Positions 274 to 63,960 of a stretch of DNA of 64,000 nucleotides are shown piece after piece; position 1 is the stretch's first letter; each line of letters opens with the position of its first letter. The translations under genes were made by a program, and so were the position numbers. The notes under the pieces are model-generated. The model was not told the DNA's origin. It saw only the letters and a program-made list of their open reading frames with translations, and ran no database searches. Source of the DNA: Spirochaetia bacterium (GTDB lineage: Bacteria > Spirochaetota > Spirochaetia > CADAEX01); the NCBI GenBank assembly GCA_963662795.1, contig OY759746.1, positions 1,952,001 to 2,016,000 of the forward strand, given 5' to 3'.

Positions 274-516
274 GTCCGGCCTTGGCGGTGCCGTGCGGCC
301 TGGACAAGAAGGGGTCGTACTGCATATAACAGCGGGTAAAACACTGCGCTCGCCGTAGCTCGCTTGGGCTCCGCCAAACATCGCAGCTGAAAATAAAAGT
401 AAAAGAACAAAACAGTTTTTGCTGAAGTATTCAGAAATTGCGATGCTTCGTTTACCCGCGGGACGTTAGCAGCAATGCCCCCGCCAAGAAAGAGGTGCGT
501 GCCGTCCTGGCACGCA
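274..516. repeat. Junction R1 (upstream arm unique; core alpha'; downstream arm C)
   Basis: GTCCGGCC..GGAC hairpin, TAAC 327-330, GTT 465, variant 5' hairpin TGCGTGCCGTCCTGGCACGCA. Confidence 0.9.
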
Positions 517-627
517 AGGAAACAGTGAAGTGCTGGTTCATTTATGAAACTGTAGATGTGTAAAATTGGAATTGCTGAGAAAAGGTTTGCAAACAGTATT
601 TGAGAAACTTTAAACAATTAAATGTTC

Positions 628-660
628 TTGCTTATAGTATAAACATAGTATATACTATAA
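628..660 (+). promoter_or_regulatory. sigma70 promoter with palindromic operator for mazEF
   Basis: TTGCTT-N17-TATACT overlapped by TATAGTAT...ATACTATA. Confidence 0.65.
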
Positions 661-676
661 ATAGAGGTTAAGCTTT

Positions 677-913
677 ATGGAAACTGTAATTAAGAAATGG
701 GGAAACAGTCTGGGCGTAAGAATACCAGGTTTTATAGTAAAAGATTTATCCTTAAAAGACGGCTCATTTGTAGAAATTGAGAAAGAGGAAGATAAAATAG
801 TCATAAAACAAAAGAATAAAATTAATTTAAAGGAAATGCTCAAGAACATAGATATTAATAATCTTCATGGCGAAATAGAAACAGAAGGTCCAGAGGGAAA
901 AGAAATATGGTAA
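677..913 (+). CDS. mazE: AbrB/MazE antitoxin
   Basis: KWGNSLGVRIP motif; overlaps toxin. Confidence 0.92.
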   Translation: METVIKKWGNSLGVRIPGFIVKDLSLKDGSFVEIEKEEDKIVIKQKNKINLKEMLKNIDINNLHGEIETEGPEGKEIW

Positions 914-1248
914 AGAAAGACTATGTTCCGGAAAGAGGAGATATTATCTGGTTAGACTTTCCACCACAATCAGGGCCTGAACAGAGGGGGAAAAGACCAG
1001 CAATTGTAATATCACCTAAGGAATATAATGAAAAAGTAGGACTTGGAATATTCTGCCCTATAACCAGTAAAGAAAAGGGTTATCCATTTGAAGTGAAGAT
1101 AGAAAGCAGGAAAATAGACGGAGTAATACTATCGGATCAGCTTAAAAGTCTTGATTGGAAAAGCAGGAATGCTGAGTTTATAGTAAAAGCAAAAAAAGAA
1201 GAAATGAAAGAAGTGATAGATAAAATCAGTGTATTGATATTTGAATAA
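907..1248 (+). CDS. mazF: MazF/PemK mRNA interferase toxin
   Basis: RGDIIWLDF..GPEQRGKRPAIVIS..CPITS..DQLKSLDW. Confidence 0.93.
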   Translation: MVKKDYVPERGDIIWLDFPPQSGPEQRGKRPAIVISPKEYNEKVGLGIFCPITSKEKGYPFEVKIESRKIDGVILSDQLKSLDWKSRNAEFIVKAKKEEMKEVIDKISVLIFE

Positions 1249-1264
1249 AGATCCCGGAATAAGA

Positions 1265-1554
1265 AATCAATCTGCCGTCCATGGCAGCTTGATTAAGGCG
1301 GGGGTCACTGCTGCTAACAGAGGATAATTCGCTGCGCTCGGAGTACCTCGCTTGGCCTGCGGCATATTTTGCTATCATTAAAACAGTTCAAATTATGTTT
1401 TTACTATATTTAAATGTATTCCCTAAAAGTATTATGTTGAAAAAGGTTTTAGCAAAACATCGCTTATCCTCGAGACGTTATGCGAAAGGCTGGCCGAAGA
1501 GGAATAGGCTGGGGGCGGGGGAGGGGAAGACGCCGCCGCACATCGTGTGCGCCG
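1265..1554. repeat. Junction R2 (C; alpha; D)
   Basis: TAAC 1315, GTT 1477. Confidence 0.85.
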
Positions 1555-1960
1555 AAGAAAAATTAATAAACTGTGATTTTTATAATCTGTAAGAGTGTTT
1601 GTATAAATTGCCATTATAAAAGCAGAAAAAATGAAAATATAATTTTATTTTAGCAGTTCCTTTCGTTTCATTTGATTATGGATTGGTTAATAAACAAAAA
1701 AAAATAAATCGCATAAAATGTAATATATTCTTGTAAATGAAAATTATTTGGGATAAAGGTGAAAATAAAACTCTTAAGCTTGAAAGATGTATTTCTTTCA
1801 AGATATTTGCGGATTTGATTCTGGGGCTAGTTATAAAGTTAATTTGCAAAATATTAACCTTGGAATATAGCTGATTATGATAATTTTCACCGTCTCACAC
1901 TTCCATGTGTTCGACGAAAACCGCCCCAGCCAAGAAGAGCCGGCCAGCCCATCGCATAAC
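1477..1960. other. ORF-less outer unit (arm D), copy 1
   Basis: Near-identical to 15590-16072; no conserved ORF. Confidence 0.8.
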
Positions 1961-2155
1961 AGCGAATGGCCGGTTCCTGCTGTTTCTAAGGAAACAGCCT
2001 CCACCCAAATTGCCGAAATAATTCATGTTAAGAATAATGGAATAGAGTATAAACTTTTGGAGTAAAAAACACCATCGGCAACTTCGGTCATTCGCGAGAC
2101 GTTATCCACAATATCATCGCAAGAGGCATCGCCCGGACCTCCGGCCAACGGGCGA
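1891..2155. repeat. Junction R3 (D; gamma; B)
   Basis: TAAC 1957, GTT 2101. Confidence 0.88.
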
Positions 2156-2229
2156 AGAAAATAGAATTTGCTGTATAATATACTTTATACATAACATATA
2201 TAGTTTTCTATTTATTTAATATGTTAGAA
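2156..2229 (+). other. attI-like leader (inner-tier insertion site)
   Basis: ATATATAGTTTTCT..TTATTTAATAT|GTTAGAA; GTTAGAA complements R'' TTCTAAC at 3203. Confidence 0.65.
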
Positions 2230-2314
2230 AGACCCTGCGGGCGGCAGAGAATAAATATCCTTTATGTCTTATTAAAAAAAGTCGATTCTTTATGGATACA
2301 TTGAAGGAGTCCTT

Positions 2315-3193
2315 ATGAAAAAAGTATTTTTTTTTGGTGTACTTGCAGGTTGTGTTTTCTCTGCATTAATTTTCATAGGTTATTATGCGGTAACAAACCG
2401 TTCTTCAAAGAATAATATTGTTTCTCCTGAAGTTCAACACCAGGTTATACAAAATATTCAAGACATAAACAAAATTCTGGATTTTGCGGATGATAGTCTT
2501 GCAGAGTATACGGACAATCTTATGGAAGTACGCGAAATATTATTAAATGCAGATGCCAAGAAATACATAAATAAGGAAGAAAAACAGAAGATTACCGGTT
2601 TATGTGAAAAAGGTCTTCAGATAATTGAAACAGCAAAGTTTAATACTCTTCCAGTATTTCATAATAATTGTGATGGAGAATACAACAGGGTTATTCCGGT
2701 AACGCTTGATGCTGCAAAACCAACATACAAACTTACCATATCGTGTATGAATTTTAATAGGAATGTAGTTAATGTATTTATTAATAGTTTAGCATCTGAA
2801 ACAGGATTAGAAAATAATATTGCTGAACTTGATAAAATAGTATCTGCCGTTACATTAGAACGCGCACAACTGGGTGCTTATAAAAACAGGCTTACACATT
2901 CTCTTGAAACAGCAGAGGTTTTATCAAAAAAAAATGCGAACGAGAGACAGACTGAAATAAACAGAATCATTCAAAAAATAAAAACTGAACAACTGGTTCT
3001 GAGCGTTCAAAGCGCTAATGGAATATATTGTTTTGAAGACAGACAACAAATTCAAGTAAACTTTGATGAACTGAATAATGAATTAAACAGAATTAATGCA
3101 TTCTCACAAAAAACAATTGCAAAGAATAACAATATTTCCTTACTCTCTCAGTCAGATGCTGAAAACGCAATGCTGTATCTTGTAAAAAAATAG
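2315..3193 (+). CDS. Membrane-anchored flagellin-domain protein
   Basis: N-terminal TM; RAQLGAYKNRL and SVQSANGIY..EDRQQIQV flagellin motifs. Confidence 0.7.
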   Translation: MKKVFFFGVLAGCVFSALIFIGYYAVTNRSSKNNIVSPEVQHQVIQNIQDINKILDFADDSLAEYTDNLMEVREILLNADAKKYINKEEKQKITGLCEKGLQIIETAKFNTLPVFHNNCDGEYNRVIPVTLDAAKPTYKLTISCMNFNRNVVNVFINSLASETGLENNIAELDKIVSAVTLERAQLGAYKNRLTHSLETAEVLSKKNANERQTEINRIIQKIKTEQLVLSVQSANGIYCFEDRQQIQVNFDELNNELNRINAFSQKTIAKNNNISLLSQSDAENAMLYLVKK

Positions 3194-3202
3194 CAATAAG
3201 AT

Positions 3203-3330
3203 TTCTAACAACTGCTTCAGCCTGATATTTTCTTTGTCACGATTTGTGCTAACTCGCTGCACTCGTCTTACGCACAAATCGCGCCAATCCGCTACGCGGC
3301 GCGAAAATACAGGTTAAGCAAATGTTAGAC
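3203..3330. repeat. Classical attC (inner)
   Basis: TTCTAAC-AACTG-CTTCAGCC...GGTTAAG-CAAAT-GTTAGAC. Confidence 0.85.
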
Positions 3331-3449
3331 AGACCCTTCGGGCAGATAAGAAAAAAACGCATTTCCGAAAGGAACCAAAAGGTGTTATACTTTGAGTGTG
3401 TTTGAATAAGCTTGAATACAGCCTTACAAAGACTAATTGGAGGTAAAGC

Positions 3450-3821
3450 ATGAATTTAGGAGCCTTTTCGGTTAGCTTAGCCGTAAAAAACATTGTTTCA
3501 TCAAAAGAATTTTATACAAAACTTGGATTTACTGAATTCGGGGGAGATATTAGTCAAAACTGGTTGATATTGAAAAATGGCGATTGTATTATTGGATTAT
3601 TCCAAGGTATGTTTGATGGTAATATATTAACATTCAATCCAGGATGGGATCAAAATTCAAATATTATTAACAACTACACAGATATAAGACTTATACAAGA
3701 AAAAGTGATTCAAAATGGAATAACACCTACTTCATTAGTAGAACAGGATAGTAAAGGACCTGCAAGCTTTACCTTAATAGATCCGGACGGTAATACAATT
3801 CTAGTCGATCAACACATTTAG
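3450..3821 (+). CDS. VOC/glyoxalase family protein
   Basis: SLAVKNI..SKEFYTKLGF; GPASFTLIDPDGN. Confidence 0.85.
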   Translation: MNLGAFSVSLAVKNIVSSKEFYTKLGFTEFGGDISQNWLILKNGDCIIGLFQGMFDGNILTFNPGWDQNSNIINNYTDIRLIQEKVIQNGITPTSLVEQDSKGPASFTLIDPDGNTILVDQHI

Positions 3822-3830
3822 AAACGAAAT

Positions 3831-3943
3831 GTCTAACAACGAGTTCGAGCGCGACAACCCTATGTCACGATTCTTGCTTTTCCGGCATTCGCCGGGCAAG
3901 AATCGTGACATTGAACGCGTTGCGGCTCAATTCAATGTTAAAA
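3831..3943. repeat. Classical attC (inner)
   Basis: GTCTAAC-AACGA-GTTCGAGC...GCTCAAT-TCAAT-GTTAAAA; long internal stem. Confidence 0.85.
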
Positions 3944-3961
3944 AAAATAGAAACGGGGGAA

Positions 3962-4253
3962 GTCCGGCCTTGGCGTTGCCGTGCGGCCCTGGACAAGAAG
4001 CGATGATACTGGTGGATAACAGCGATTATTTCGCTGCGCTCCCTTTGGTCGCTTGGGCTCCTGCCAGTTGAGCTGGCAGATCGCCATATTTTGTTTTCAT
4101 AAAACCAGAACGACATGTGTTTTATGCTTTTTATGTTTGAAAAATCAAATAAATGTATTTTAGAGTTTAGCAACAAAACATCGAATAATCGCGGGACGTT
4201 ATCCACAATGCCCCCACAAGATGCGATCGCCCGGACCTCCGGCCGACGGGCGA
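3962..4253. repeat. Junction R4 (B; beta; A)
   Basis: TAAC 4017, GTT 4198. Confidence 0.9.
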
Positions 4254-4288
4254 GGATATGCAGTATAATATTAGCTAAAGGAATATTG

Positions 4289-5191: not shown

Positions 5192-5253
5192 AAATTGTTT
5201 CTTCGTAAATTACCCTACAACATGAAACTGAAAAACGTTGACTAGAATATATG

Positions 5254-5280
5254 TACAGGTAGAGTAATTACCTGACAGTA
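5254..5280. repeat. Trailer hairpin CAGGTAGAGTAATTACCTG (first of 7 copies)
   Basis: Related copies at 22774, 33855, 40992, 43539, 55038, 62071, each just before a junction. Confidence 0.7.
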
Positions 5281-5286
5281 GAAGAA

Positions 5287-5562
5287 GTCCGGCCTTGGCT
5301 TCCAGCCGTGCGGCCTGGACAAGAAGTGGGGACACTGGTGGATAACAGAGGATAATGCGCTTCGCTCGGAGTCCCTCGCTTGGCCTGCGGCACATTTTAC
5401 TTTTTTTAAATTATGACAATTTTTGTTATATAGTTTTCAATTTTATCACTACGGATAAAAAATGTTTTTAGAGTTTGTGACGTAAAACGTCGCTTATCCT
5501 CAGGACGTTATCCACAATGCCCCCACAATAGAAAATCGCCCGGACCTCCGGCCGACGGGCGA
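5287..5562. repeat. Junction R5 (A; alpha; A)
   Basis: TAAC 5343, GTT 5507. Confidence 0.9.
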
Positions 5563-5587
5563 GAAAAAAACTTAAGGATTAGTAAAA

Positions 5588-6583
5588 ATGAATACAATAA
5601 TACTTCCAAATGTATTAGATGATGATGGAGCAATAAGTTTTGTAAATGACTTAAATAGTAGTCTTGAATATCCTGAAGTTCAAATATGTTTTAAGAATTT
5701 ATCATTTGTAAGACCTTTTGGTGTTTTAGTTTCAGCGGAAGCTTTTAAAGATTTTGTAAACAAACGTTCTATAAATGGTTTAAAAACATATTATATGGAT
5801 TCAGAATGGTTAAAAAGTAAAAATAGTGGAGCCATAAGTTATTTAAAATATTTTGGATTTTTTAAATATTGTGGAATACCTGTAGGTGAGGAGCCAAATA
5901 AAATATTTCATACCAGTACTTATTTCCCAATTCAAACAATTGAAAAAAATGATTTGGAACAAAAATCTTTAATTGGTAACTGGAGAAATGTAATAGAAAA
6001 AAAATGTTCTGAATTATCGAAATTAATTACTAAAGATGAAATTGCATATACATATTTAGATTATGCATTAAGAGAAATAATCAGGAATGTTTTTGAGCAT
6101 TCTAATGTTAATCAATGCAGTTTAATGGCTCAATGTTATGCTAATGATGAAATCGAAATAGCTGTTGCAGATAGAGGTATAGGTATACATAACACTTTAA
6201 AAGATAAATATAACGTAGATAATCCAATTGAATCTTTACTATTATCAATGGAACCTGGTGTTTCTCGTGTAAATGTTGAAGAAAGTAAGGGGGAATGGGG
6301 AAATAGTGGTTTTGGTCTATATATTCTCTCTGGTGTTGGAAAAGAATACGGTACATTTTCATTATTATCAAGTTGTGCATATGTCAGTTTATATAAAGAA
6401 GATCAAAAAATACTTGTTGATAGAAATTATTTTAATGGTACAGCAATAAAAGTAAGAGTTAAAAAAAGCTATTTAGAGTATTTTCCCAATTTGCGTAAAA
6501 AATTGATTGATGAAGGAGAAGAAAAGTATCTTGAAAGGTATGGAAAAAAGATTAGAGCTTCAGGTAAATCAAAAAAATCCTAA
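5588..6583 (+). CDS. STAS-like + GHKL/HATPase domain protein
   Basis: EIIRNVFEHS, DRGIGI, NSGFGL, GT boxes. Confidence 0.75.
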   Translation: MNTIILPNVLDDDGAISFVNDLNSSLEYPEVQICFKNLSFVRPFGVLVSAEAFKDFVNKRSINGLKTYYMDSEWLKSKNSGAISYLKYFGFFKYCGIPVGEEPNKIFHTSTYFPIQTIEKNDLEQKSLIGNWRNVIEKKCSELSKLITKDEIAYTYLDYALREIIRNVFEHSNVNQCSLMAQCYANDEIEIAVADRGIGIHNTLKDKYNVDNPIESLLLSMEPGVSRVNVEESKGEWGNSGFGLYILSGVGKEYGTFSLLSSCAYVSLYKEDQKILVDRNYFNGTAIKVRVKKSYLEYFPNLRKKLIDEGEEKYLERYGKKIRASGKSKKS

Positions 6584-6601
6584 TTAAAAAAGAGTTTTAT
6601 A

Positions 6602-6895
6602 GTCCAGCCTTGGCTCCGCCGTGCGGCTTGGACAAGAAGTGGGGGCACTGGTGGATAACAGCGGTTAAAGCGCTTCGCTCGGAGTACCTCGCTTGGGCTC
6701 CTGGCTGTTGAGCAGCCAGTTCGCCAAACAGCGTAGGATTTTGAACTGTAACTTTATAAAACAACAAGTTTTAAACGACAATAAATAAAAGCTTTGAGTT
6801 TTCTATTCTTCGCCTACGATGCTTCGCTTAACCGCGGGACGTTATCCACAATGCCCCCACAAGAGAAATCGCCCGGACCTCCGGCCGACGGGCGA
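6602..6895. repeat. Junction R6 (A; alpha'; A)
   Basis: TAAC 6656, GTT 6841. Confidence 0.9.
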
Positions 6896-6976
6896 GGATA
6901 CATAAATAAAAGTAAAAAATATTTCTATTGCTCACAAAACACGAAATATAAATAAAATCATCGAAGGAAAAGTAAT

Positions 6977-7459
6977 ATGGAAATAAATATTGAGACTTTT
7001 TTAGGACTTTCTAGTTTGTCGTGGTCAGCAGTTAGCTCAATGGCGACTGTCCTAGCAGTAATTATAGCATTATTTCTCCCTTTTTATGTGGATAAAAAAA
7101 AGAAAACTAATTTAATTAAGCTAATTGAAGAAGAGATTAATGCCAATGCAAAATTATTAAAAGATGCAGATATAATGAAAGACGGTAATTTTGATGGTAC
7201 ATCAATCAATAGATTGACCCTAATGTGTGCTCTATTAATTCATATTGATTATAGTGTGTGGAGTAATAATAATCAAACAATTGCCGAGATTTCAGCGAAG
7301 ACATTTTTGAAATATTCAGACATTATGAAAATGCTTGGCGTTATAAAGAAATATGCAATAGATTATCAAAAAACAAAAGGTATGGTACCAACATCTGTAT
7401 TTATTGATGTAACAGTTAAAAAATGTATTAAAGCAATTGCTGATAGGAAAATAACATAA
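6977..7459 (+). CDS. Hypothetical protein with N-terminal TM helix
   Basis: 160-aa ORF with RBS filling a unit. Confidence 0.7.
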   Translation: MEINIETFLGLSSLSWSAVSSMATVLAVIIALFLPFYVDKKKKTNLIKLIEEEINANAKLLKDADIMKDGNFDGTSINRLTLMCALLIHIDYSVWSNNNQTIAEISAKTFLKYSDIMKMLGVIKKYAIDYQKTKGMVPTSVFIDVTVKKCIKAIADRKIT

Positions 7460-7602
7460 AAATGAATGGTGATTATTTAGAAATAAATATTATTATAAGT
7501 TTTGCAGATAATCAATATCAGCTATAAAAAAATAATTTAATTACTATTAATAATTTTCTAAAATGTCAATTAAAAAATATTAGAAATATCTATACATAAT
7601 TC

Positions 7603-7875
7603 GTCCGGCCTTGGCTTCCAGCCGTACGGCCTGGACAAGAAGTGGGGGCACTGGTGGATAACAGAGGATAAAGCGCTTCGCTCGGAGTACCTCGCTTGGG
7701 CTTCGCCACACATCGTAGAGAGTGAACAACACCAACTATATACAACCAGTTTTAAAAGAAAAATAAAACAGCTTTGAATATCAATGCTTATCTTACGATG
7801 CGTCGCTTATCCTCAGGACGTTAGCAGCAATACGTCCCCAAGAGAACGCCGCCCGGACCTCCGGCCGACGGGCGA
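7603..7875. repeat. Junction R7 (A; alpha; E)
   Basis: TAAC 7659, GTT 7820. Confidence 0.9.
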
Positions 7876-7931
7876 AGAGGTAATGACAAGAATACGATAA
7901 AAATATATAAATATGTAATTGGGAGTCAACA

Positions 7932-15371: not shown

Positions 15372-15667
15372 GTCCGGCCTTGGCGTTGCCGTGCGGCCCT
15401 GGACAAGAAGCGATGATACTGGTGGATAACAGCGGTTCAAGCGCTTCGCTCGGAGCACCTCGCTTGGCCTTCGGCAAACATCGTAGGATTTTATCTACAT
15501 AATTATAGCGTAACAAGTTTTAACAGGCGATAAATAAAAACTTTGTGTTTTTCATTCTTGGTCTACGATGCTTCGCTTAACCGCGGGGCGTTATGCGAAA
15601 GGCTGGCCGAAGAGGAATAGGCTGGGGGCGGGGGAGAGGAAGACGCCGCCGCACATCGTGTGCGCCG
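15372..15667. repeat. Junction R10 (B; alpha'; D)
   Basis: TAAC 15427, GTT 15590. Confidence 0.88.
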
Positions 15668-16072
15668 AAGAAAAATTAATAAACTGAGAGTTTTATAATC
15701 TGTAAGAGTGTTTGTATAAATTACCATTATAAAAGCAGAAAAAATGAAAATATAATATTATTTTAGTAGTTCCTTTCGTGTGATTTGATTATGGATTGGG
15801 TAAAAAACAAAAAAAATAAATCGCATAAAATGTAATATTTTCTTGTAAATGAAAATTATTTGGGATAAAGGTGAAAATAAAACTCTTAAGCTTGAAAGAT
15901 ATATTTCTTTCAAGATATTTGCGGATTTGATTCTGGGGCTAGTTATAAAGTTAATTTGCAAAATATTAACCTTGGAATATAGCTGATTATGATAATTTTC
16001 ATCGTCTCACACATCCATGTGTTCGACGAAGACCGCCCCAGCCAAGAAGAGCCGGCCAGCCCATCGCATAAC
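15590..16072. other. ORF-less outer unit (arm D), copy 2
   Basis: Near-identical to 1477-1960. Confidence 0.8.
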
Positions 16073-25420: not shown

Positions 25421-25691
25421 GTCCGGCCTTGGCGGTGCCGTGCGGCCTGGACAAGAAGCGATGATACTGGTGGATAACAGAGGATAATGCGCTTCGCTCC
25501 CTTTGGTCGCTTGGGCTTCGCCACACATCGTAGGTTTTGAACTACATTGTTTAGAAACAACAGGCTTTAAAAGAGACAAATTACAACTTTGGAATATTCA
25601 TTCTTGGGCTACGATGCGTCGCTTATCCTCGGGACGTTATACGAAAAATCCCAGCAAGAGAACATCGCCCGGACCTCCGGCCAACGGGCGA
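25421..25691. repeat. Junction R16 (B; alpha; I)
   Basis: TAAC 25475, GTT 25636. Confidence 0.9.
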
Positions 25692-25740
25692 ATATAGCAA
25701 AATATTTATATTTTAACGAATAGAAATAACTTGAAAATGA

Positions 25741-26106
25741 TTATAGCAATTCTTCAAGAATATTTTTTTTTACAATTTCAATATTATTATTAATTTCACA
25801 TTCCCATAATATTAAAACTTTCCATCCCATACCTTTAAGAGTTTCATAATTTCTTAAATCACGTTTCATATTATTATCTAGTTTTTTATTCCAAAAAGTT
25901 ATATTTGTTTTTGGTCTTAATGACTTTGGGCAATTCTTATGTTGATGCCAAAAACACCCATTAATAAAAATTGCTATCTTTTTACTTGGAAAGACAATAT
26001 CAGGTTTACCTGGAAGTTTTGAATAATGAATATAATATCTAAATTTATTATTAAAAAGCCACTTCCGAATTATTAATTCAGGTGTTGTGCTTTTATCTTT
26101 ATAGAT
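25741..26106 (-). CDS. vsr: Very short patch repair endonuclease (no canonical start; ATC start or truncated)
   Basis: Manual translation: STTPELIIRKWL..LPGKPDIVF..FINGCFWHQH..FWNKKL..GWKVLILWECE; absent from ORF track. Confidence 0.85.
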   Translation of the reverse strand: MYKDKSTTPELIIRKWLFNNKFRYYIHYSKLPGKPDIVFPSKKIAIFINGCFWHQHKNCPKSLRPKTNITFWNKKLDNNMKRDLRNYETLKGMGWKVLILWECEINNNIEIVKKNILEELL

Positions 26107-26218
26107 GTTTTTCTCCTTGAAAATTCTTGAAAAAAAGCATTTAAAGCTTTACAATTGTATAGTATAATATTTTAATAAATATTGTTATAAATAACAAGTC
26201 CTATATAAGGGGATTGAT

Positions 26219-27382
26219 ATGGAAGCTAATTTTCCCGGGTTGGGGCTAATAAGTAGAGGTTACTACTATCCTTGGCAAGAAGAAGTAAAGAAAATTGCTA
26301 ATAATAATAAAAAAACATTAATTGAGACTTTTTCTGGTCCTGGTGGCATGAGTTTAGGTTTGGAGTGGGCTGGTTTTGATTTAAAATTAGCTTTTGATTA
26401 TGATAAAATGTCTGTTGAAACTCATAATAAAAATCTTGGCAATAAATGTTTACAGCTTGATGCACGCGATGTTTCTGGTAATTTTATATTAAATAAAACA
26501 AAGCTGAAAGGAGGAGATATTGATCTTGTTTCAGGCGGCCCCCCCTGTCAAGGATTTTCTAAACAAAAACGAGGAGCACATTTAGGTGATTCTCGTAATG
26601 AATTAGTTGATGAATATATTAGAATTATTCGAGAATTAAACCCTAGGTTTTTTTTATTTGAAAATGTTGCTATTTTTGGACAAAAAAGAGGAAAAAAGCA
26701 TATTGAAAATATGCTTTCATATTTTAATGATTATGATCTTAATCCGGCATTTTATAATGCAGCAAATTATGGACTACCACAAACTAGGCAAAGGTATATT
26801 ATTGTTGGAAAGAGAAAAGATATAAAAACTGCATATGAAATTCCATTACCGACTGTTGACAAATGGTTAACTATTGCTGATGTTTTTAAAGATTTACCAG
26901 AACCACCAGAGGATTATACTGAACATTCTAAATACCCAAATCATCAGAGAGCAAAAGTGACTGGTTTAAACATACATAGATTTCGCTTTGTCCCACAGGG
27001 GGGTGGTTGGCAGGATATTCCAATTGAATTACGTTTAAAATGTCATCGAGTTGCTGATACTAAATCAGGGGGTTGGCCTGATGTCTATGGAAGATTAGAA
27101 TGGAATGGACAATGTCCAACTATTACTGGGGGATTTGATAGTTTTACCCGTGGTCGTTATGGACATCCTTTTCATGATAGACCGATTACTCCAAGAGAAG
27201 CAGCAAGAATTCAAGGTTTTCCTGACTCATTTATTTTTCTAGGAACAAGAGGTGATATACGTTCACAAATTGGGAATGTAGTACCACCTCCTCTTGCTGA
27301 AGCTATTGGGTTGTCTATACTTAGAACATTATTTATAGAAGATGGATTAATTAATAAAGCTACTGAACGACTTGTTGTTTAA
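26219..27382 (+). CDS. DNA cytosine-5 methyltransferase
   Basis: FSGPGG, GGPPCQGFS, ENV, QTRQR, REAARIQGFP, IGNVVPP. Confidence 0.93.
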   Translation: MEANFPGLGLISRGYYYPWQEEVKKIANNNKKTLIETFSGPGGMSLGLEWAGFDLKLAFDYDKMSVETHNKNLGNKCLQLDARDVSGNFILNKTKLKGGDIDLVSGGPPCQGFSKQKRGAHLGDSRNELVDEYIRIIRELNPRFFLFENVAIFGQKRGKKHIENMLSYFNDYDLNPAFYNAANYGLPQTRQRYIIVGKRKDIKTAYEIPLPTVDKWLTIADVFKDLPEPPEDYTEHSKYPNHQRAKVTGLNIHRFRFVPQGGGWQDIPIELRLKCHRVADTKSGGWPDVYGRLEWNGQCPTITGGFDSFTRGRYGHPFHDRPITPREAARIQGFPDSFIFLGTRGDIRSQIGNVVPPPLAEAIGLSILRTLFIEDGLINKATERLVV

Positions 27383-28269
27383 CTCATTAATTGTTCACGT
27401 TCTTTAAAAAACATACCAAGTGGATGAACATGAATAGGAGGATACCACTTGTTCATTTCTTTGTATTTTTCTGGAAGATCTAAATAATATACTCTTTTCA
27501 TTTGAGCTATGAACAATTGATAAATTCGCCATTGATCTGGAAGACATATTTCAGTAACTTCAAGTTTTCTTTGATCAACTTTTGTCTCACTTAAACATGT
27601 CAATAATCCTAAGAACCGACCATTTCCATATATCCCGTCCAGTACACGTTGATGAGCCCAAACTTGAATTACTCTTTCACGAGTTGAAGTTTTTACTGGT
27701 ACATGATATTTAGGCTTATTATAACCAAGGTCAAATATAAAATCTGTTGGAAGTTTTGAATTTAAATTATCAATATTTAATACTTCCACCTGTTTCCTTG
27801 GAGTAATACCTAAATTTGTAGAAAAAAGTTGACCCATAAAGTATTCAAAAAAGGTACCAGGTGTTTTCTGATCATTTGATTTAATCAGATCTATTGCACT
27901 GCAAAAGGAGATTGCAATTTTATAACAAATATTAGTAATTTCATCAGCAGTATAAGCTTCTATGTCATTTGTTTTTATTTTATCAATAAATATTCTTATA
28001 CTATTATCATCAACATTTATTAAGTTTTTATTTATTGCCCTAGTTCGATGATTATTGTTTTCATAGCATATATATTCTTTATTTGGAATTAAAGATTTTA
28101 AATTGATTAATTTTGATTTTGATAATAGTAATCTACTTTCATGATAAATATCAAAAATAATATCATATATATGACTTTGTCCTTCATTGCCATGAAATGA
28201 TTTTTTTAATTTATTATAATTTACTATTAGCTTTTTTTCCATAATTATAATATCGGTTGTTAATTTCAA
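27379..28269 (-). CDS. Type II restriction endonuclease, probably CCGG-core family
   Basis: PTDFIFD..VKTSTRER motif; convergent with MTase. Confidence 0.75.
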   Translation of the reverse strand: MKLTTDIIIMEKKLIVNYNKLKKSFHGNEGQSHIYDIIFDIYHESRLLLSKSKLINLKSLIPNKEYICYENNNHRTRAINKNLINVDDNSIRIFIDKIKTNDIEAYTADEITNICYKIAISFCSAIDLIKSNDQKTPGTFFEYFMGQLFSTNLGITPRKQVEVLNIDNLNSKLPTDFIFDLGYNKPKYHVPVKTSTRERVIQVWAHQRVLDGIYGNGRFLGLLTCLSETKVDQRKLEVTEICLPDQWRIYQLFIAQMKRVYYLDLPEKYKEMNKWYPPIHVHPLGMFFKEREQLMS

Positions 28270-28312
28270 ATTGCTTAGAGCTATAAATGAATTGAAAAAT
28301 GCGAATTATATA

Positions 28313-28582
28313 GTCCAGCCCTTGGCGTTGCCGTGCGGTCTGGACAAGAAGCTGGGATTCTTCGTATAACAGAGGATACTGCGCTTCGCTCGGAGAACCT
28401 CGCTTGGCCTTCGGCATATTTTGCATTTTTATAATCAACACAATTAATAAAATAATGTTTTCAATATTGATAAAACAAAATATTGAAGCTTTTAGTATTT
28501 TGCAAAACATCGCGTATCCTCGGGACGTTATACGTAATGGCCAGGCAAGAGAAAATCGCCCGGACCTCCGGCCGACGGGCGA
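28313..28582. repeat. Junction R17 (I; alpha; F)
   Basis: TAAC 28367, GTT 28527. Confidence 0.9.
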
Positions 28583-33888: not shown

Positions 33889-34157
33889 GTCCGGCCTTGG
33901 CTCCGCCGTACGGCCTGGACAAGAAGTGGGGGCACTGGTGGATAACAGCGGTTAAAGCGCTGCGCTCGCAAGCTCGCTTGGGCTCCTGCCAGTTGTGCTG
34001 GCAGTTCGCCAAACATCGCAGCTTGAAATAAAAGTAAAAGAACTAAACAGCTTGTGGAATAATGTAATCATAAATTGCGATGCTTCGCTTAACCGCGGGA
34101 CGTTATCCACAATGCCCCCACAAGAGGAAATCGCCCGGACCTCCGGCCGACGGGCGA
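33889..34157. repeat. Junction R20 (A; alpha'; A)
   Basis: TAAC 33943, GTT 34102. Confidence 0.9.
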
Positions 34158-34233
34158 GGATGTAGTGCAATATGAAAAATGTACAGTATAATAATATATG
34201 TTAGGCGCAAATCATGTATCATGGAATACAATT

Positions 34234-35553
34234 TTAATGAAAAACAATACCATCTTTTTCTGACAGTTTGAGGAGAATCACAGTGATGATTAGCCCAATG
34301 ACTTCTGCAATTCCTACAGTAAACCAAATAATTGAATCTCCAAATAATACTGGTAATAGAGTGATTGAAATAGGGGTTAGAACTAGAGATCTAATACAAA
34401 CTGATATAACAGCATATTTTGTTCGTTTTGTGGAATAGAGATAAGTTGAAATCATCAAATTTAATGAAAGAACAATATAAGCCCAGCTAAATTTGGGTAG
34501 TGCTTCAATTGTAATTTGAAGAAGGAAGTTGTCAGAATTAAAAAGTGGGATAATTTTGCTTTTAAAAGTTACCAACAATAGAAAAACTATTGCTGCACTT
34601 AGAAAGTTGATCAACATACCAGAATGGAAATAAAATTTGAGATCTTTTTCATTTTTACGACCATAGCTTTGTCCGATTAATGGCTGCAACCCTTCAGATA
34701 TTCCAAAGAAGATACCTATTGAAAATGATGTCAAAAAGGAAATAATTGAAAAAGCTGAAACAGCATTATCACTAAGCGTTTTTATCAATATGTAATTCAT
34801 ACACAAAATTAACACTGGCATTCCAAATTGTGAGATCATTTCTGGCAACCCACGCATTAATACTTTTTTAAAGAGTAAAATTGATACAGAGAATCTTTTG
34901 ATTCTCAAATTTCCCCGATTTAGGGCAAAATGGCTTAACAGAATTACAAGAGTACCAATTTGTCCCACCCCTGATGCAATAGCCGCTCCTTTGACTCCCA
35001 TTTGCAAAGGAAATATGAATAGCCAATCTAGGGCAATATTCATTATGGTACCAATAATGACAGCAATGCTGACTAGTATCGGGGCGCCGTCATTCCGCAC
35101 GAATCCTTGAAGGATTATAGAAATAATTGCTGGAAGGAAGAAAGAGCTGACAAAGAAAATGTATTCGGATGTCATATCATGGAAAGTTTCGTTAGCGGCA
35201 CTTAACGTTGCGATTTGATTGGAAAAGACCATACCCAGAATCATGATGATAACTGATATCATAAATGATGCTGAAGTAGCGTGCATGAAAGCACTATTTG
35301 CCCCTTCAACATCGTTACGCCCAAGTCGTATTGCTGTAATGGTGATGCCGCCGATAGTCAACAGTATAGCAATGGCATTTGCCATAAGAGTGTACGGTAG
35401 TGCTAGGTTGACTGCACCTAAAGCAACGGCTCCAACACCGCGTCCAACAAAGATGCCGTCAACAATGATATAAAGGAAAACAGAGCATGAACCAGCGACT
35501 GTAGGGATAATGTAACGGAACATGTTTCGAGTTCTAACGTTAATTTTCTTCAT
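34234..35553 (-). CDS. MATE family efflux transporter
   Basis: IVDGIFVG, NIALDWLFIF..MGVKGAAIA, QPLIGQSYG. Confidence 0.9.
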   Translation of the reverse strand: MKKINVRTRNMFRYIIPTVAGSCSVFLYIIVDGIFVGRGVGAVALGAVNLALPYTLMANAIAILLTIGGITITAIRLGRNDVEGANSAFMHATSASFMISVIIMILGMVFSNQIATLSAANETFHDMTSEYIFFVSSFFLPAIISIILQGFVRNDGAPILVSIAVIIGTIMNIALDWLFIFPLQMGVKGAAIASGVGQIGTLVILLSHFALNRGNLRIKRFSVSILLFKKVLMRGLPEMISQFGMPVLILCMNYILIKTLSDNAVSAFSIISFLTSFSIGIFFGISEGLQPLIGQSYGRKNEKDLKFYFHSGMLINFLSAAIVFLLLVTFKSKIIPLFNSDNFLLQITIEALPKFSWAYIVLSLNLMISTYLYSTKRTKYAVISVCIRSLVLTPISITLLPVLFGDSIIWFTVGIAEVIGLIITVILLKLSEKDGIVFH

Positions 35554-35555
35554 TT

Positions 35556-36011
35556 TTATTCTGCCTTACAAAGGATGGTTCTTGATTTTTCACGAAATAT
35601 TTTCAAAAAATTCCGAAGAGATTGCAGCATTGCAATTCGATCTGCATCGCTCATTTCCATTAAAGTAGATTCTTCCAGTTGAAATATGATATCAAATATT
35701 TTACTGGCAAAGATGCGACCGGATTCGGTCAATACGATTCTTTTACTCCGGTGGTCGCTTGTAGATATCTCCAAAAAAATAAGTCTTTTCTTTATGAGTT
35801 CTTGCAGTGCGCTATTTACAGTTTGCTTGCTCATGGACCATTGGTCACATATATTTTTCTGACTGCAATAATCATCAGATTCATAGAGTGCATATAACAC
35901 CCAATAACTACTGTCCGAGAGATTGCTTTGGCTTGCTAACTTTCTGTATATTGCGTCAGTCTCTTTCCAGAGAGAATTAAATTCATAAAGCTGGTCATGT
36001 AGTGTAGCCAT
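35556..36011 (-). CDS. MarR family regulator
   Basis: SKQTVNSAL..DHRSKRIVLTESG. Confidence 0.88.
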   Translation of the reverse strand: MATLHDQLYEFNSLWKETDAIYRKLASQSNLSDSSYWVLYALYESDDYCSQKNICDQWSMSKQTVNSALQELIKKRLIFLEISTSDHRSKRIVLTESGRIFASKIFDIIFQLEESTLMEMSDADRIAMLQSLRNFLKIFREKSRTILCKAE

Positions 36012-36106
36012 ATATCCTCTTTTCCAATAATAGTCCGAAATAAGACCAATATAAAGACTTTTATTTAACTAGTCAATAGGCAAATAAAAGAGAATAAAGA
36101 AAGTAA

Positions 36107-36379
36107 GTCCGGCCTTGGCTTCCCGCCGTGCGGCCTGGACAAGAAGTGGGGCACTGGTGGATAACAGAGGATAAGGCGCTTCGCTCGGAATACCTCGCTT
36201 GGCCTGCGGCAAACATCGTAGATTTTGAACTACAATTGCTATAATTAACAATTTTTTGAAGAAAAATATTGCAACTTTGGAATATTCATTCTTGGGCTAC
36301 GATGCGTCGCTTATCCTCGGGACGTTATCCACAATGCCCCCACAAGAGAAAATCGCCCGGACCTCCGGCCGACGGGCGA
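36107..36379. repeat. Junction R21 (A; alpha; A)
   Basis: TAAC 36162, GTT 36324. Confidence 0.9.
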
Positions 36380-36454
36380 GAGAAAAAAATATAAGCTATT
36401 ATGTTAACTAATATATATTTATATAGTATAATAGTTTCTGAAGTAGTAAAGTGA

Positions 36455-36946
36455 GTGGGAATTATGATAAGAGAAGCTGAATTAAAAGATGTAAATGCAA
36501 TAGCACAGATAATAGTCACATCTTGGAAAACTGCTTATTCAGGAATAATTAATCCTGAATATTTGAATAGCCTTAAGCAAGATAAATATATAAAAATATT
36601 TACTGATAATATTTTAAATAAAAAAGAAAAAATACTTGTTAATGATGACAATGGAGTAAATGGATTTGTATCAGGAATAATACATGAAAATAGTAAATAT
36701 GACTGTGAGATAATAGGATTGTATATTAATCCAGAATATCAGAGAAAAGGTATAGGAAAAAAACTTGTTGAGGAAATTATAAAATATTTTAAGAGTAAAA
36801 ATAAAAAGAATTTAATAATTTGGACATTAAACAATGCTAAGAATAATGGTTTTTATGAAAGGATAGGATGTAGTAAAAAAGAATATAAGAATATGGAGAT
36901 TGGAGAAAAAGAATATAAAGGAGTTGGATTCAATATCCTTTTATGA
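36455..36946 (+). CDS. GNAT N-acetyltransferase
   Basis: LYINPEYQRKGIGKKL; FYERIG. Confidence 0.88.
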   Translation: MGIMIREAELKDVNAIAQIIVTSWKTAYSGIINPEYLNSLKQDKYIKIFTDNILNKKEKILVNDDNGVNGFVSGIIHENSKYDCEIIGLYINPEYQRKGIGKKLVEEIIKYFKSKNKKNLIIWTLNNAKNNGFYERIGCSKKEYKNMEIGEKEYKGVGFNILL

Positions 36947-36982
36947 ATAATAAAAGATCTTGTTAAATTGGTGAAAAAGAAA

Positions 36983-37256
36983 GTCCGGCCTTGGCTTCCA
37001 GCCGTGCGGCCTGGACAAGAAGTGGGGGCACTGGTGGATAACAGAGGATAAAGCGCTTCGCTCGGAGTACCTCGCTTGGCCTACGGCACACATCGCAGGT
37101 TTTGAAGTATAACTTCTATAAACAACTAGTTTTAAAAAATAAATACTGCAATTTTAAAAATATTATACATTGACTACGATGCGTCGCTTATCCTCAGGAC
37201 GTTATAAGCAATGTTCCCGCAAGAGAAAATCGCCCGGACCTCCGGCCGACGGGCGA
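36983..37256. repeat. Junction R22 (A; alpha; H)
   Basis: TAAC 37039, GTT 37201. Confidence 0.9.
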
Positions 37257-52044: not shown

Positions 52045-52311
52045 GCCCAAGCCTTGGCGGTGCCGTGCGGCTTGGAAGAAGGGGCGGTACTTCCGAGAAC
52101 AGAGGATAATGCGCTGCGCTCGGAATACCTCGCTTGGGCTTCGCCACACATCGCAGGTTTCGAACTACAACTTCCATTAACAACCAGGTTTTTGAAGAGA
52201 AATACTACAGCTTTAAAATAATAATAATATTCCAACGATGCGTCGCTTATCCTCGGGACGTTAGCAGCAATGCCCCCGCCAGGAGAGAGCTGCGTGCCGT
52301 CCTGGCACGCA
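52045..52311. repeat. Junction R31 (J; alpha; C)
   Basis: GAAC 52097, GTT 52260. Confidence 0.88.
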
Positions 52312-52409
52312 AAGAAAAAGGTAAGTGTTTGATATTTCTTAAAAGTGTGAATATGTAAAAATCTTACTTTCTGAAAAAAGGTTTAAAATCAGTATTTCAT
52401 AAATCCAAA

Positions 52410-52802
52410 ACAATTGTAGAAATTGAGGAAGAATGGGATAAAATAGTTATAAAGCAAAAGAACAAGACTAATTTAAAAAAGTTGTTTAAGAACATAGATA
52501 TTAATAATCTTCATGGCGAAATAAAAATTGAAGCCCCAGAGGGAAAAGACCTAAATTAGCAATATCAACAGATGAATATAATGGAAAAGAGAGACTTGTG
52601 GTATTCTTTTCTATAAATCAGTAAAGAAAAATGGTATCCATTCGAAGTGAAGATAGAAAGCAGTAAAATAGATGAAGTAATATTATTAGAATAATTTTAA
52701 AGTCTTGACTGGAAAAGTAGGAATTCAGAGTTTATAGTAAAAGTAAGTAAAGAAGAAATAAAAGAAGTGATAGATAAAAGCAGTGTATTGCTATTTGAAT
52801 AA
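52410..52802 (+). pseudogene. mazEF: Decayed mazEF copy
   Basis: Aligns to 769-1248 with two internal deletions and stops. Confidence 0.85.
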
Positions 52803-52818
52803 AAATCCCGGAATAAGA

Positions 52819-53068
52819 AATCAATCTGCCGTCCATGGCAGATTGATTAAGGCGGGGGACACTGCAGCTAACAGCGAATGACCGGTTCCGGCTGTTTCTA
52901 AGGAAGCAGCCTCCACCCAAATTGCCGAAATAATACATGTTAAGAATAATGGAATAGAGTATAAACTTTTGGAGTGAAAAACATCATCGGCAACTTCGGT
53001 CATTCGCGGGACGTTATCCACAATGCCCCCACAAGAGAAAATCGCCCGGACCTCCGGCCGACGGGCGA
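52819..53068. repeat. Junction R32 (C; gamma; A)
   Basis: TAAC 52869, GTT 53013. Confidence 0.88.
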
Positions 53069-59391: not shown

Positions 59392-59443
59392 ATTATTTAA
59401 AACATAATAAACTGTAAATGCAGTCTTAATGAAAAAAAAAGAA

Positions 59444-59714: not shown

Positions 59715-59756
59715 GGATATTAAATGTAGTACATTATAATAAATATTAGGTGAGGT

Positions 59757-62057: not shown

Positions 62058-62103
62058 TATTGCATATTTTTACAGGCAGAGTAATTACTTGACACTATAA
62101 TAA

Positions 62104-62393
62104 GTCCAGCCTTGGCTCCGCCGTGCGGCTTGGACAAGAAGCCTGGCCACTACGTATAACAGCGATTATTTCGCTGCGCTCCCTATGGTCGCTTGGGCTC
62201 CTGCCAGTTGAGCTGGCAGATCGCCATATTTTGTTTTCATAAAACCGGAACGGCATGTATTCTATGCTTTTTAAGTTTGAAAAAATTAAATAAAAGTATT
62301 TTAGAGTTTAGCCACAAAACATCGAATAATCGCGAGACGTTAGCAGCAATACGTCCCCAAGAGAAATCGCCCGGACCTCCGGCCGACGGGCGA
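62104..62393. repeat. Junction R37 (F; beta; E)
   Basis: TAAC 62157, GTT 62339. Confidence 0.9.
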
Positions 62394-62443
62394 ATAGGTT
62401 TTTATCTGATTAGGAACGTTTTATAAACAAAATAGAGATAACA

Positions 62444-63181
62444 GTGAATAGTCTTAAAAAAGCCATTAAATTAGAAAAAAAAGGAAACTATAAAGCAGCT
62501 TTAGTTTCATATAAAAAGATTGAGACAGATGATTTATCTGAAAAAGAACATTTATATGTAAATAGATCGATCGCTGCCTGTTTATTCTATCTAAGAGAAT
62601 ATGATAAAGCAATTCAGGAATATGAAAAAATACTCAAAGAATTCTTTTTGGATACATTTTTAAAAAATCAAATAAAAGAGAATATGCAATTATGCTTTTT
62701 ATATGGTTCTTCAGCACAGAAAGCAATAGAGTATTTTAAAAATAGAATATTGAATGAAAAAAGCAATATAGAAAAGAAATGCTGGTGGTATTGGTATACA
62801 GGACAAGGATTTCAAAGATTAAAAGAATTTAAAGCAGCTGAAATAGCTTATAAACATGCATATCAAACATCAAAAGAATTAAACAGTCCAAAGGAAGATT
62901 TTTATCTTCTTTATATAGCAGTAATAAAAATATTTCAAAAACAATTACAAAATGCTGATGAAATATTAGTTTTATATAAAGAAATATATAATCAAAAAGA
63001 TATAACTGGGTTGTTTCAAATAATTACGGGTTTAGTTGCTATGCAAAAAGATTTTACTAAAGGACAGAAGCTTTATCATAATGGAATCAAAAAAGCCAAA
63101 AAAGGAAAGTGGATAGAAAACATTGAACTTGCCGAAGAGTTATTAAAAGTCTGTAAAGAAGAAAGCTATGTCAAAAGATGA
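62444..63181 (+). CDS. TPR protein
   Basis: GNYKAAL, EYDKAIQEYEK repeats. Confidence 0.7.
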   Translation: MNSLKKAIKLEKKGNYKAALVSYKKIETDDLSEKEHLYVNRSIAACLFYLREYDKAIQEYEKILKEFFLDTFLKNQIKENMQLCFLYGSSAQKAIEYFKNRILNEKSNIEKKCWWYWYTGQGFQRLKEFKAAEIAYKHAYQTSKELNSPKEDFYLLYIAVIKIFQKQLQNADEILVLYKEIYNQKDITGLFQIITGLVAMQKDFTKGQKLYHNGIKKAKKGKWIENIELAEELLKVCKEESYVKR

Positions 63182-63674
63182 TATAATTGTTAAAAAAATA
63201 TTTCCGCCGCTTGATGATTTATACATGCTTTTGAAAAAAATGCAAAAAGTATTGAATGTGGAAATCAATGAAGAAGATTTTGTTATAGGTAAAAAGCAAT
63301 TATTTTATATTTTTATGCATGAGACAATGCATGCCTTTATCTCTAAAAAAGCACATTGGATATATGATCTTGCTGAATATGAAACAGATTTTATTGATGA
63401 AGTAGTCGCAAGAATAATAATTGATGATTTGATAAAAGAATTAAATATCTACGAAAAGTTGGATTTATTTTATGAAAACCATATTAATCACAGAAAAGAT
63501 CTTCCAAAATATGGTTACAATTTAACCCCAGAACAGTATGACGGAATCGAAAGAGAATATTATAGAAATCATTCGAAAGAAAAAGATATTAATGGCTTCT
63601 GTCATTTTGTTCATGATGAGTATAAAAGACTTGGTATTAAACGGAGAGAAGATTTTTCATATAAACAGAATTAA
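63168..63674 (+). CDS. Hypothetical protein with HExxH motif
   Basis: MHETMHA..DEVVAR. Confidence 0.6.
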   Translation: MSKDDIIVKKIFPPLDDLYMLLKKMQKVLNVEINEEDFVIGKKQLFYIFMHETMHAFISKKAHWIYDLAEYETDFIDEVVARIIIDDLIKELNIYEKLDLFYENHINHRKDLPKYGYNLTPEQYDGIEREYYRNHSKEKDINGFCHFVHDEYKRLGIKRREDFSYKQN

Positions 63675-63704
63675 GAAAATATTTAATAGCTAATATATAA
63701 AGAA

Positions 63705-63960
63705 GTCCGGCCTTGGCTTCCAGCCGTACGGCCTGGACAAGAAGGGGACGTACAGCTGCTAACAGCGAATGACCGGTTCCGGCTGTTTCTAAGGAAGCAG
63801 CCTCCACCCAAATTGCCGAAATAATACATGTTAAAAATAATGGAATAGAGTATAAACTTTTGGAGTGAAAAACACCATCGGCAACTTCGGTCATTCGCGG
63901 GACGTTATGCTCAATACCAGCCGCAAGATGCGATCGCCCGGACCTCCGGCCAACGGGCGA
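63705..63960. repeat. Junction R38 (E; gamma; G)
   Basis: TAAC 63760, GTT 63904. Confidence 0.9.

Follow-up and report, generated by a model that had tools for sequence, protein, structure and literature searches.

Cassette-specific complementary ends of about 20 bp in a 330-kb integron-type array of a Spirochaetia bacterium and a candidate recombinase at its head

Organization of the Cassette Array

The DNA analyzed here is a 64,000-nt stretch of the genome of a Spirochaetia bacterium (assembly GCA_963662795.1; positions 1,952,001-2,016,000 of the 3.93-Mb contig OY759746.1), hereafter called the window. It is the interior of a sedentary integron-type cassette array in which every cassette is bounded by its own pair of long complementary sequences. 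The window (1-64,000, plus strand) contains 37 complete cassettes and two partial ones at its ends. The array as a whole is one-directional, extends over ~330 kb from genome position 1,847,951 to about 2,181,000, holds at least 184 cassettes and takes up 8% of the chromosome. Directly upstream of it, and co-oriented with it, lies the gene for a 339-aa tyrosine recombinase (genome positions 1,846,782-1,847,798, plus strand), hereafter called the head recombinase, and the first cassette begins about 150 nt past this gene. Positions given below without the word genome are those of the window.

The cassettes share a standard structured chassis around their cargo, as an initial annotation of the window had proposed from the sequence alone. 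At the 5' end, 19-21 nt between GTT and an AAGA linker form the arm, which is followed by a conserved hairpin (H1). At the 3' end a second conserved hairpin (H2) precedes an AAGAA linker, and the stretch between this linker and AAC forms the complementary arm (arm'). H1 occurs in the window in 34 copies at up to three mismatches, exclusively on the plus strand, and was found in none of 100 shuffles; a strict pattern recovered 31 copies of H2. Over the whole contig 166 copies of H1 were found, again on the plus strand exclusively, spanning genome positions 1,850,161 to 2,180,017.

Every complete unit in the window has an arm' that matches its own arm, which bears out the complementarity claimed for 37 of 37 units in the initial annotation, and its eleven arm classes were reproduced together with their unit counts. 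The variant inner hairpins noted for classes C and D were also recovered, the 37 units being 33 with H1 and four with variant hairpins (starting at 465, 1477, 15590, and 52260). In the unit list, two false candidates (18118 and 28743) had split the units at 17967 and 28527, and the partners of both units were located. Genome-wide, 157 of 162 consecutive H1 units carry the cognate arm' at up to three edits. The other five are units with mismatched arms, which the initial annotation had named as speaking against its proposal if they move normally in related genomes; they are chimeras that bear the arm' of another class. A looser scan of the genome returned 240 candidates and, from these, 184 matched cassettes (160 with H1 and 24 without) with about 35 arm variants. 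Cassettes of the same class adjoin each other more often than expected over the genome (mutual information 1.30 versus 0.88 when shuffled, a value reached in 0 of 2000 shuffles); tandem duplication or class-biased insertion may each give rise to this pattern.

The distal end of the array (genome positions 2,180,000-2,183,600) is disrupted. The last cassette has no H2 and no arm', an insertion sequence breaks the arm of the next one, and a second transposase lies beyond. Far from the array, at genome positions 450,500-451,800, an isolated cassette 3' end (H2, class B arm', and inner attC) and a lone H2 were found beside a transposase gene. This piece looks like an array fragment that was carried off by an insertion sequence.

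Anatomy of the Cassettes and Their attC Sites

By integron convention, a complete cassette extends from 5508 to 6841 and consists of TT-arm, H1, a cargo open reading frame (ORF; 5588-6583), H2, arm', inner attC, and a final G. The junction in front of it may serve as example for the details, all on the plus strand. In H2 of the preceding cassette (5287-5320), the stem has two tiers, a bulged T, and a pair that covaries. After the AAGAA linker follows arm' of class A (5326-5346), which comprises the R'' core ending in TAAC and an outward extension. In the inner attC body (5347-5506), L'' and its one extra base come first, followed by a hairpin region rich in GC and a stretch rich in AT, then by L' and the spacer of 5 nt (GGGAC/AGGAC) that adjoins GTT. 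The arm of the next cassette, likewise of class A (5507-5526), has the R' core G|TTA and its extension, with the crossover at or beside G|TT, and H1 (5536-5562) has a 7-bp stem and a 13-nt loop.

The segment between arm' and the next arm, 140-180 nt in length, has the anatomy of an attC site, with TAAC, one base, L'', a variable region, L', GGGAC/AGGAC, and GTTA in this order. Parsing took in 130 junctions. Covariation between L'' and L' extends over at least four classes (mutual information 2.07 versus 0.36 when shuffled, reached in 0 of 2000 shuffles), and one extrahelical base lies on the L'' side, so that the inner segment has the architecture of integron attC sites. A match of the flanks to a described attC family, which the initial annotation had named as speaking against its proposal, was thus found in part, GTT and AAC being the R' and R'' cores.

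Duplicated cassettes mark the boundaries of the mobile unit. The seven pairs are identical at 1241-2218 of 1363-2223 positions (91-100%), and in their flanks identity falls to 60-98 of 200 positions, save where the following cassette is also common to both. The two copies of the closest pair lie about 300 kb apart and differ at 1 of 1363 positions. In seven of seven pairs identity ends at ...GAC-GTT on either side, with upstream flanks that bear no relation to each other and downstream sequences that part right after GTT. Therefore, the mobile unit is TT-arm ... arm'-AAC-inner-G. Crossover takes place at G|TT or beside it, the exact bond not being placeable within the conserved GACGTT(A). Each cassette carries its own R' side at the 5' end and its own R'' side at the 3' end, which explains why the arm after one junction complements the arm before the next.

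Two other readings of the unit were rejected. If the inner segment were a separate mobile module, it would not be expected to travel with the cassette, and duplicated cassettes keep their own downstream inner segment and not the upstream one. The class of the inner attC is weakly tied to the preceding arm' (mutual information 0.71 versus 0.46) and barely tied to the next arm (0.58 versus 0.48, reached in 64 of 2000 shuffles). A miniature inverted-repeat element (MITE) or transposon was rejected because the arms on the two sides of one junction differ in class.

Canonical attC sites also occur in the array, at least six of them in the window. One is nested in the arms-type unit 2101-4020, where a short site (3202-3330, plus strand; R'' TTTCTAAC ... 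R' GTTAGAC) is followed by a canonical cassette (3331-3943, plus strand) with an ORF at 3450-3821 and its own attC at 3831-3943. The initial TTAGAC of this cassette pairs with its own R'' GTCTAA over 7-8 nt only. Canonical sites that lie within units in this way were probably substrates of canonical IntI at an earlier time.

Pairing and Covariation of the Cassette Ends

At 13 variable positions, cognate arm pairs are 98.7% Watson-Crick with three to four pair types per position. Over the same positions, array neighbors of other classes pair at 48.0% (n = 109), and 500 shuffles of the partners gave a mean of 52.6% and a maximum of 56.5%. The duplex energy (DNA parameters) is -21.0 kcal/mol for cognate arms versus -6.7 kcal/mol for non-cognate classes. 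R-box pairing thus extends over ~20 bp (20-21 bp arms) with covariation at 13 positions, beyond the 7-bp limit of ordinary R''/R' pairing. A motif-free scan for any GTT-led 20-mer with an inverted partner up to 6 kb away returned 11 matches on each strand over the window's first 20 kb, as against none in 20 kb of this genome outside the array, and a motif-based scan of two control stretches of 60 kb found no arms. Pairing of the cassette-private ends is under selection. The proposal that ends lying kilobases apart pair with each other therefore stands, and such pairing is sensible only in the excised and rejoined form, most likely as single-stranded DNA.

The pairing is not symmetric between strands. 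In all classes the arm center is mispaired (arm AAT versus arm' ACT, ACTG, ACA, and similar), giving A.C in the top strand and G.T in the bottom strand, and the bottom-strand arm duplex is the stabler one in 149 of 157 units. In the hairpins, many copies of which are kin by descent, the covarying pair of H2 (pair 5) is G-C in 71, A-T in 26, A.C in 15, and G.T in 3 copies, and 37 copies of H1 have C.A as the closing pair. These strand-biased mispairs favor bottom-strand DNA over sense RNA, as a lead and not a test. They agree with the established recombination of the bottom strand in integrons (PMC2727003; PMC5027507). For a natural junction between cassettes of the same class (5280-5570), the bottom strand is predicted to fold at -51 kcal/mol (z -4.3) into H1, an arm stem of 21 bp, a bulge of 4 nt, the L stem, and H2; the top-strand fold reaches -44.8 kcal/mol (z -3.0).

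Recombinases of the Genome

The initial annotation had advised looking for a tyrosine recombinase, HUH or reverse transcriptase gene at the array ends. A tyrosine recombinase is indeed present at the head; it is neither a canonical IntI nor an HUH or reverse transcriptase enzyme. Against the integron integrase model TIGR02249 the head recombinase scores 200 bits (cut-off 265) in two pieces and skips model positions 173-229, and in comparison with VchIntIA (2A3V) it has 24 residues where IntI has 66. The integrase at the array head is thus one without the IntI-specific insertion. Its best family score is that to the XerA-like family NF040815 (214.5 bits, cut-off 220). The structural model has 2A3V and then XerA as closest folds, and the catalytic residues are invariant across the alignment of the head-recombinase family. 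In a phylogenetic tree, the housekeeping Xer paralogues form a separate clade (100/99 support).

The N-terminal ~60 residues of the head recombinase are predicted to form a beta-beta-alpha-beta-beta-alpha domain. Two of 12 family members tested reach the cut-off of 25 for the Pfam HARP domain (PF07443; 25.3 and 26.7 bits), and three more score 11.8-17.4 bits. The top Foldseek match of the domain model is the HARP domain of SMARCAL1 (4O66), with a probability of 0.97 at an E-value of 0.057 and a TM-score of about 0.5. HARP domains recognize forked DNA.

The best integron-integrase match in the genome lies at 412,100-413,500, 1.4 Mb from the array, and covers the whole model including the IntI-specific part. 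This true intI is a pseudogene with a frameshift and an in-frame stop, and no cassette array was seen beside it.

A further tyrosine recombinase paralogue of 294 aa is encoded inside a class A cassette on the opposite strand (genome positions 2,050,779-2,051,573, minus strand). Short relatives of it adjoin H1 cassettes in two other genomes (G010 and G012) and group with IntI in the tree (85/91).

Distribution across Genomes and Metagenomes

H1 was found in 5 of 20 genomes of the family, counting that of the window (G000). In the class, 14 of the 401 genomes sampled have it, most of them members of two families. Homologues of the head recombinase (E-values up to 1e-55) are encoded by 37 of the 401 genomes. 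Among the 11 genomes with at least 0.5 kb of sequence downstream of the homologue, nine have co-oriented arms-type cassettes within about 1.2 kb (G000, G011, G083, G057, G128, G107, G167, G048, and G177), with homologues at 38-80% identity from three families. These arrays comprise 10 cassettes in 32 kb in G011, 11 cassettes in 20 kb in G083 with the first H1 110 nt past the gene, and 18-19 cassettes in 39 kb in G057; the cassettes of G048 and G177 have a different hairpin. The type of recombinase found at the head of the arrays is conserved. Those of G083 and G057 are nearly identical, and the two genomes have a common sequence after the gene up to ...TTCTGAGTT, followed by different first cassettes. 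This one comparison is what insertion at an attI-like site would be expected to leave. New compensated arm classes were found in other genera and in metagenome loci.

True IntI scored over the cut-off in 49 of 151 genomes of the class, and in genomes with arms-type arrays the intI genes sit elsewhere. No arms-type cassettes were seen beside true IntI in nine genomes (G128, G020, G052, G011, G012, G057, G107, G064, and G054), for which the scan covered both 20-kb flanks in G011, G012, G057, G064, and G054 and one full flank in G107. On the IntI side of G128, 51 kb contain ten cassettes with H1 and a short canonical R'; no 20-nt partner was found for these, and their R'' partners were not located. 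H1 is therefore not tied to the arms, as it is also present in these arm-less cassettes beside IntI. In the Treponema-like G052 (true IntI at 504 bits), perfect complementary runs at the cassette ends are just 3-8 nt long. No true IntI was found in the congener G014, which is 95% complete.

Outside this set, relatives of the head recombinase at about 42-48% identity number in the thousands, many of them in Clostridia. Arms-like pairs were present at 4 of 80 metagenome loci with such relatives; most of the loci have less than 3 kb of flank and are too short to judge, a basis too thin to carry the association with arrays beyond spirochaetes. For relatives of the NF040815 type, neighboring arrays were checked in the spirochaete members and at these 80 loci only.

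A scan of named records for H1 returned 39 stretches, most from metagenome-assembled genomes labeled Spirochaetia. A few short contigs with several copies of H1 (L046, L048, L055, L056, L059, L078, and others) come from metagenome-assembled genomes labeled Bacteroidales, Ignavibacteriales, Mycoplasmatota, and Cohaesibacter. These may be mis-binned contigs of repeat-rich arrays or may reflect transfer outside spirochaetes.

Proposed Mechanism and Alternative Explanations

We propose that this is an integron-type array with private arms of ~20 bp that is run by the head recombinase, and we assign this explanation a probability of roughly 0.6; the enzyme is named from its position alone. Integration at G|TT splits a cassette's own site, so that the 5' end of the cassette keeps the R' side as arm and the 3' end keeps the R'' side as arm'. 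Arm and arm' reunite only once the cassette is excised and circularized, and the bottom strand of the excised cassette would then fold to a long stem as the substrate. The folded site would consist of a fork with the conserved linkers and two hairpins, 8-9 bp, the fixed mispair of 1-2 nt, 9 bp including the GTTA/TAAC core, a 4-5 nt bulge beside the crossover, an L-box stem that has one extrahelical base, and finally a long loop.

The tyrosine recombinase upstream of the array, an enzyme without the IntI insertion that reads extrahelical bases, would need the whole arm as duplex on the R side, with a fork at a fixed distance. Its HARP-like domain would sense the fork, which would stand at a constant two helical turns from the cut, flanked by AAGA linkers. 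Such a need for a duplex arm and a fixed fork would account for the extension of the R box to ~20 bp and for its maintained complementarity in each cassette. Junctions between cassettes of different classes pair in the array at GTTA/TAAC only and should be poor substrates; the array may therefore collect cassettes more readily than it releases them. As a speculation, such one-way collecting would fit a 330-kb array in a genome with a dead IntI.

Several observations weigh against this proposal. The extrahelical base is retained in the inner attC, although it is the IntI insertion, absent from the head recombinase, that reads such bases. G083 has two clear arms-type cassettes beside true IntI, copies from its other array, so IntI may handle such cassettes. 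No array was seen downstream of the homologue in G203 (4.3 kb examined) or in G075 (0.56 kb). The likeness to HARP is weak in the window genome's own recombinase (11.8 bits), and the head recombinases of the two main families do not form one resolved clade in the tree and stand in a polytomy with IntI and clostridial relatives. The energy gap of the arm duplex between bottom and top strand is small (-21.0 versus -20.4 kcal/mol, on average 0.6), and the counts of G.T versus A.C are not independent events. Finally, Logan contigs of public runs break at H1 and H2, and their joints have sides of 20-34 nt inside the repeats, which makes them uninformative on circles.

Some of these points lead to the view that the array is an ordinary integron whose canonical IntI was recently lost here. 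The long arms would then be an elaboration of the attC R box peculiar to this lineage that stabilizes the folding of attC sites with very long loops, and the head recombinase would be a neighbor with another role, such as dimer resolution or array stability. The full attC architecture of the inner segment including its extrahelical base, the IntI pseudogene, the frequency of true IntI in the class and the arms-type cassettes next to IntI in G083 all agree with this. Arms-type cassettes nevertheless concentrate behind the other recombinase and were absent beside IntI in the nine genomes examined, and the adjacency and co-orientation of gene and array hold at 38-46% protein identity over three families. 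Moreover, the intI of G000 is dead and yet cassette copies 300 kb apart are almost identical, and the congener G014 returned no IntI. We consider an ordinary integron of this kind unlikely, though it is the most serious of the alternatives.

The arms could also act in RNA, if each cassette were transcribed from the AT-rich part of the preceding attC to its own attC, with a panhandle that protects or regulates the mRNA and with H1 and H2 as RNA stabilizers. Arms, H1, and H2 all lie on the sense strand and outside ORFs, the inner segments of some classes hold promoter-like and hairpin-plus-T-run sequences (one promoter-like match at 4137-4166), and H1 is present in the arm-less cassettes next to IntI in G128. 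This explanation is improbable, since at the central mispair the sense strand has A.C and the bottom strand has G.T, with H1 and H2 biased likewise, and since the arms begin exactly at the recombination core GTT/AAC. The promoter scan was at chance (121 found versus 112 expected) and so was the terminator scan (4 versus 8.8 expected), and Rfam gave no match at gathering scores across the window and none at E-values up to 1 over 5200-7900. Least credible of all is that the complementarity is an unselected by-product of the making or copying of cassettes, for example by templated inverted duplication. The few dominant arm classes, the many same-class cassettes side by side, and the persistence of five chimeric units would suit it. 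It would hardly produce three to four Watson-Crick pair types at 13 positions with 98.7% pairing, the same central mispair in nearly all classes, or the new compensated classes of other genera and metagenome loci.

Going beyond an array run by its head recombinase, a second gene-capture lineage parallel to the integrons can be envisaged, in which a recombinase without the insertion, equipped with a HARP-like fork sensor, would read a sealed 20-bp stem with its fork instead of extrahelical bases and so capture circular cassettes. We put this forward tentatively, as it is somewhat less likely than not to be the full explanation.

Cargo and Other Cassettes

Seventeen of the 30 cargo ORFs scanned have a match in Pfam. 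Among these are MazE/MazF, a Gp49/HigB-like toxin, AIPR, a MATE transporter, a Ser/Thr kinase, T5orf172, LRR-Roc-COR, and a C5 DNA methylase beside a convergent ORF. Such cargo is the usual content of sedentary integrons. The MazE/MazF toxin-antitoxin pair is carried by an arms-type cassette of class C with variant hairpins (465-1318, plus strand). The second class C cassette (52260-52873, plus strand) is a decayed copy of it, in which AGGAG replaces AAGAG after the arm. Class D is represented by an arms-type cassette without an ORF and with variant hairpins (1477-1960, plus strand) and its second copy (15590-16072). This 464-nt cassette has GC-rich hairpins of its own, and at least five copies of it are spread over the array; a small RNA or a promoter may be encoded by it.

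Nearly all cargo is co-oriented with the array, and the cassette at 34102-36323 differs in that both of its ORFs (a MATE transporter and a 151-aa ORF) are antisense. The C5 cytosine DNA methylase at 25636-28526 is accompanied by a convergent 296-aa ORF without a Pfam match, and the two are possibly a restriction-modification pair. The cargo of the cassette at 36356-37009 is matched, at 5 differences in 657 nt, by a contig that belongs to another sample and study (X4), and the run with this match holds merely 8% of the words of the searched 10-kb stretch. This cassette seems to be common to several hosts or samples. Among the public runs, three of one sample hold the stretch and three of another hold 8% of its words; none is listed as RNA.

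Implications

If the second lineage exists, its private covarying ends would make only a correctly excised single cassette a good substrate. Cassettes that also bear a canonical attC would mean that two recombinases share one cassette pool in two dialects, and where IntI was lost the platform may be a one-way collector, which could explain the 330-kb array. Current search tools would file such platforms as integrase-less remnants. The IntI-specific insertion is regarded as the defining innovation for recombination of folded single-stranded DNA, and recombinases without it near attC sites are taken as bystanders. One that heads arrays of up to about 190 cassettes would be a natural test case for the transition from Xer-like enzymes to folded-strand recombination. 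The cassette-specific 20-bp stems form a readable structural code, and site identity might be tuned by pairing alone, which would be of interest for structure-specific recombination tools. Finally, the same chassis around unrelated cargo bears on the unsolved question of cassette origin.

Comparison with Known Systems

The array resembles sedentary chromosomal integrons, such as the super-integrons of Vibrio and the integrons of Treponema, in that its promoter-poor cassettes all point in one direction and have AAC/GTT cores, L boxes, an extrahelical base, and a crossover at G|TT. As in these, the 5' end of a cassette carries the distal part of its own R', and the cargo is rich in toxin-antitoxin pairs and defense-like genes. 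It differs in the R box of ~20 bp with a fixed central mispair instead of 7 bp, in the conserved hairpins inside both cassette ends, in a spacer that is a one-sided bulge of 4-5 nt, and in an adjacent recombinase without the IntI insertion. An integron in the sense of Cury et al. (2016) has an intI with the IntI-specific domain, an insertion near patch III, beside an attC cluster. By the definitions of IntegronFinder, the present array would be a CALIN (an attC cluster without an integron integrase) of about 190 cassettes; CALINs average about 6 attC sites (PMC9024848).

For Treponema integrons, the part of Wu et al. (2013; PMC3607928) on their sites gives attC of 63-132 bp and a co-oriented true intI, with extended arms unmentioned there, and the spirochaete attC models as presented in part of Ghaly et al. 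(2021; PMC8352920) are without such an extended-arm feature. Full-text literature, supplements not being covered, yielded no account of attC arms that are extended and covary, of hairpins like these, or of tyrosine recombinases of the HARP type; the supplementary figures of Cury et al. (2016) on recombinases without IntI signature near attC might include relatives. The claim of an undescribed recombination or cassette-assembly system thus has to be narrowed. The recombination logic is the classical cassette rule of integrons, and what is absent from the literature found are the long arms with their covariation, the hairpins that flank the stem, and a recombinase of this type.

The nearest family to the head recombinase is the XerA-like NF040815, named 'site-specific tyrosine recombinase/integron integrase', with a score under the curated cut-off. 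A precedent for a Xer-type enzyme acting on folded DNA is the integration of single-stranded CTX phage DNA by XerCD, where the stem of the folded strand mimics a duplex site with a mispaired center, one strand is exchanged, and replication resolves the junction. The proposed system would share with it a Xer-type recombinase without the IntI insertion that acts on a folded single strand. It would differ in that the enzymes of the CTX system are the housekeeping XerC/D, acting at the chromosomal dif on one phage genome, whereas a dedicated paralogue with an additional N-terminal domain would here serve a whole cassette array.

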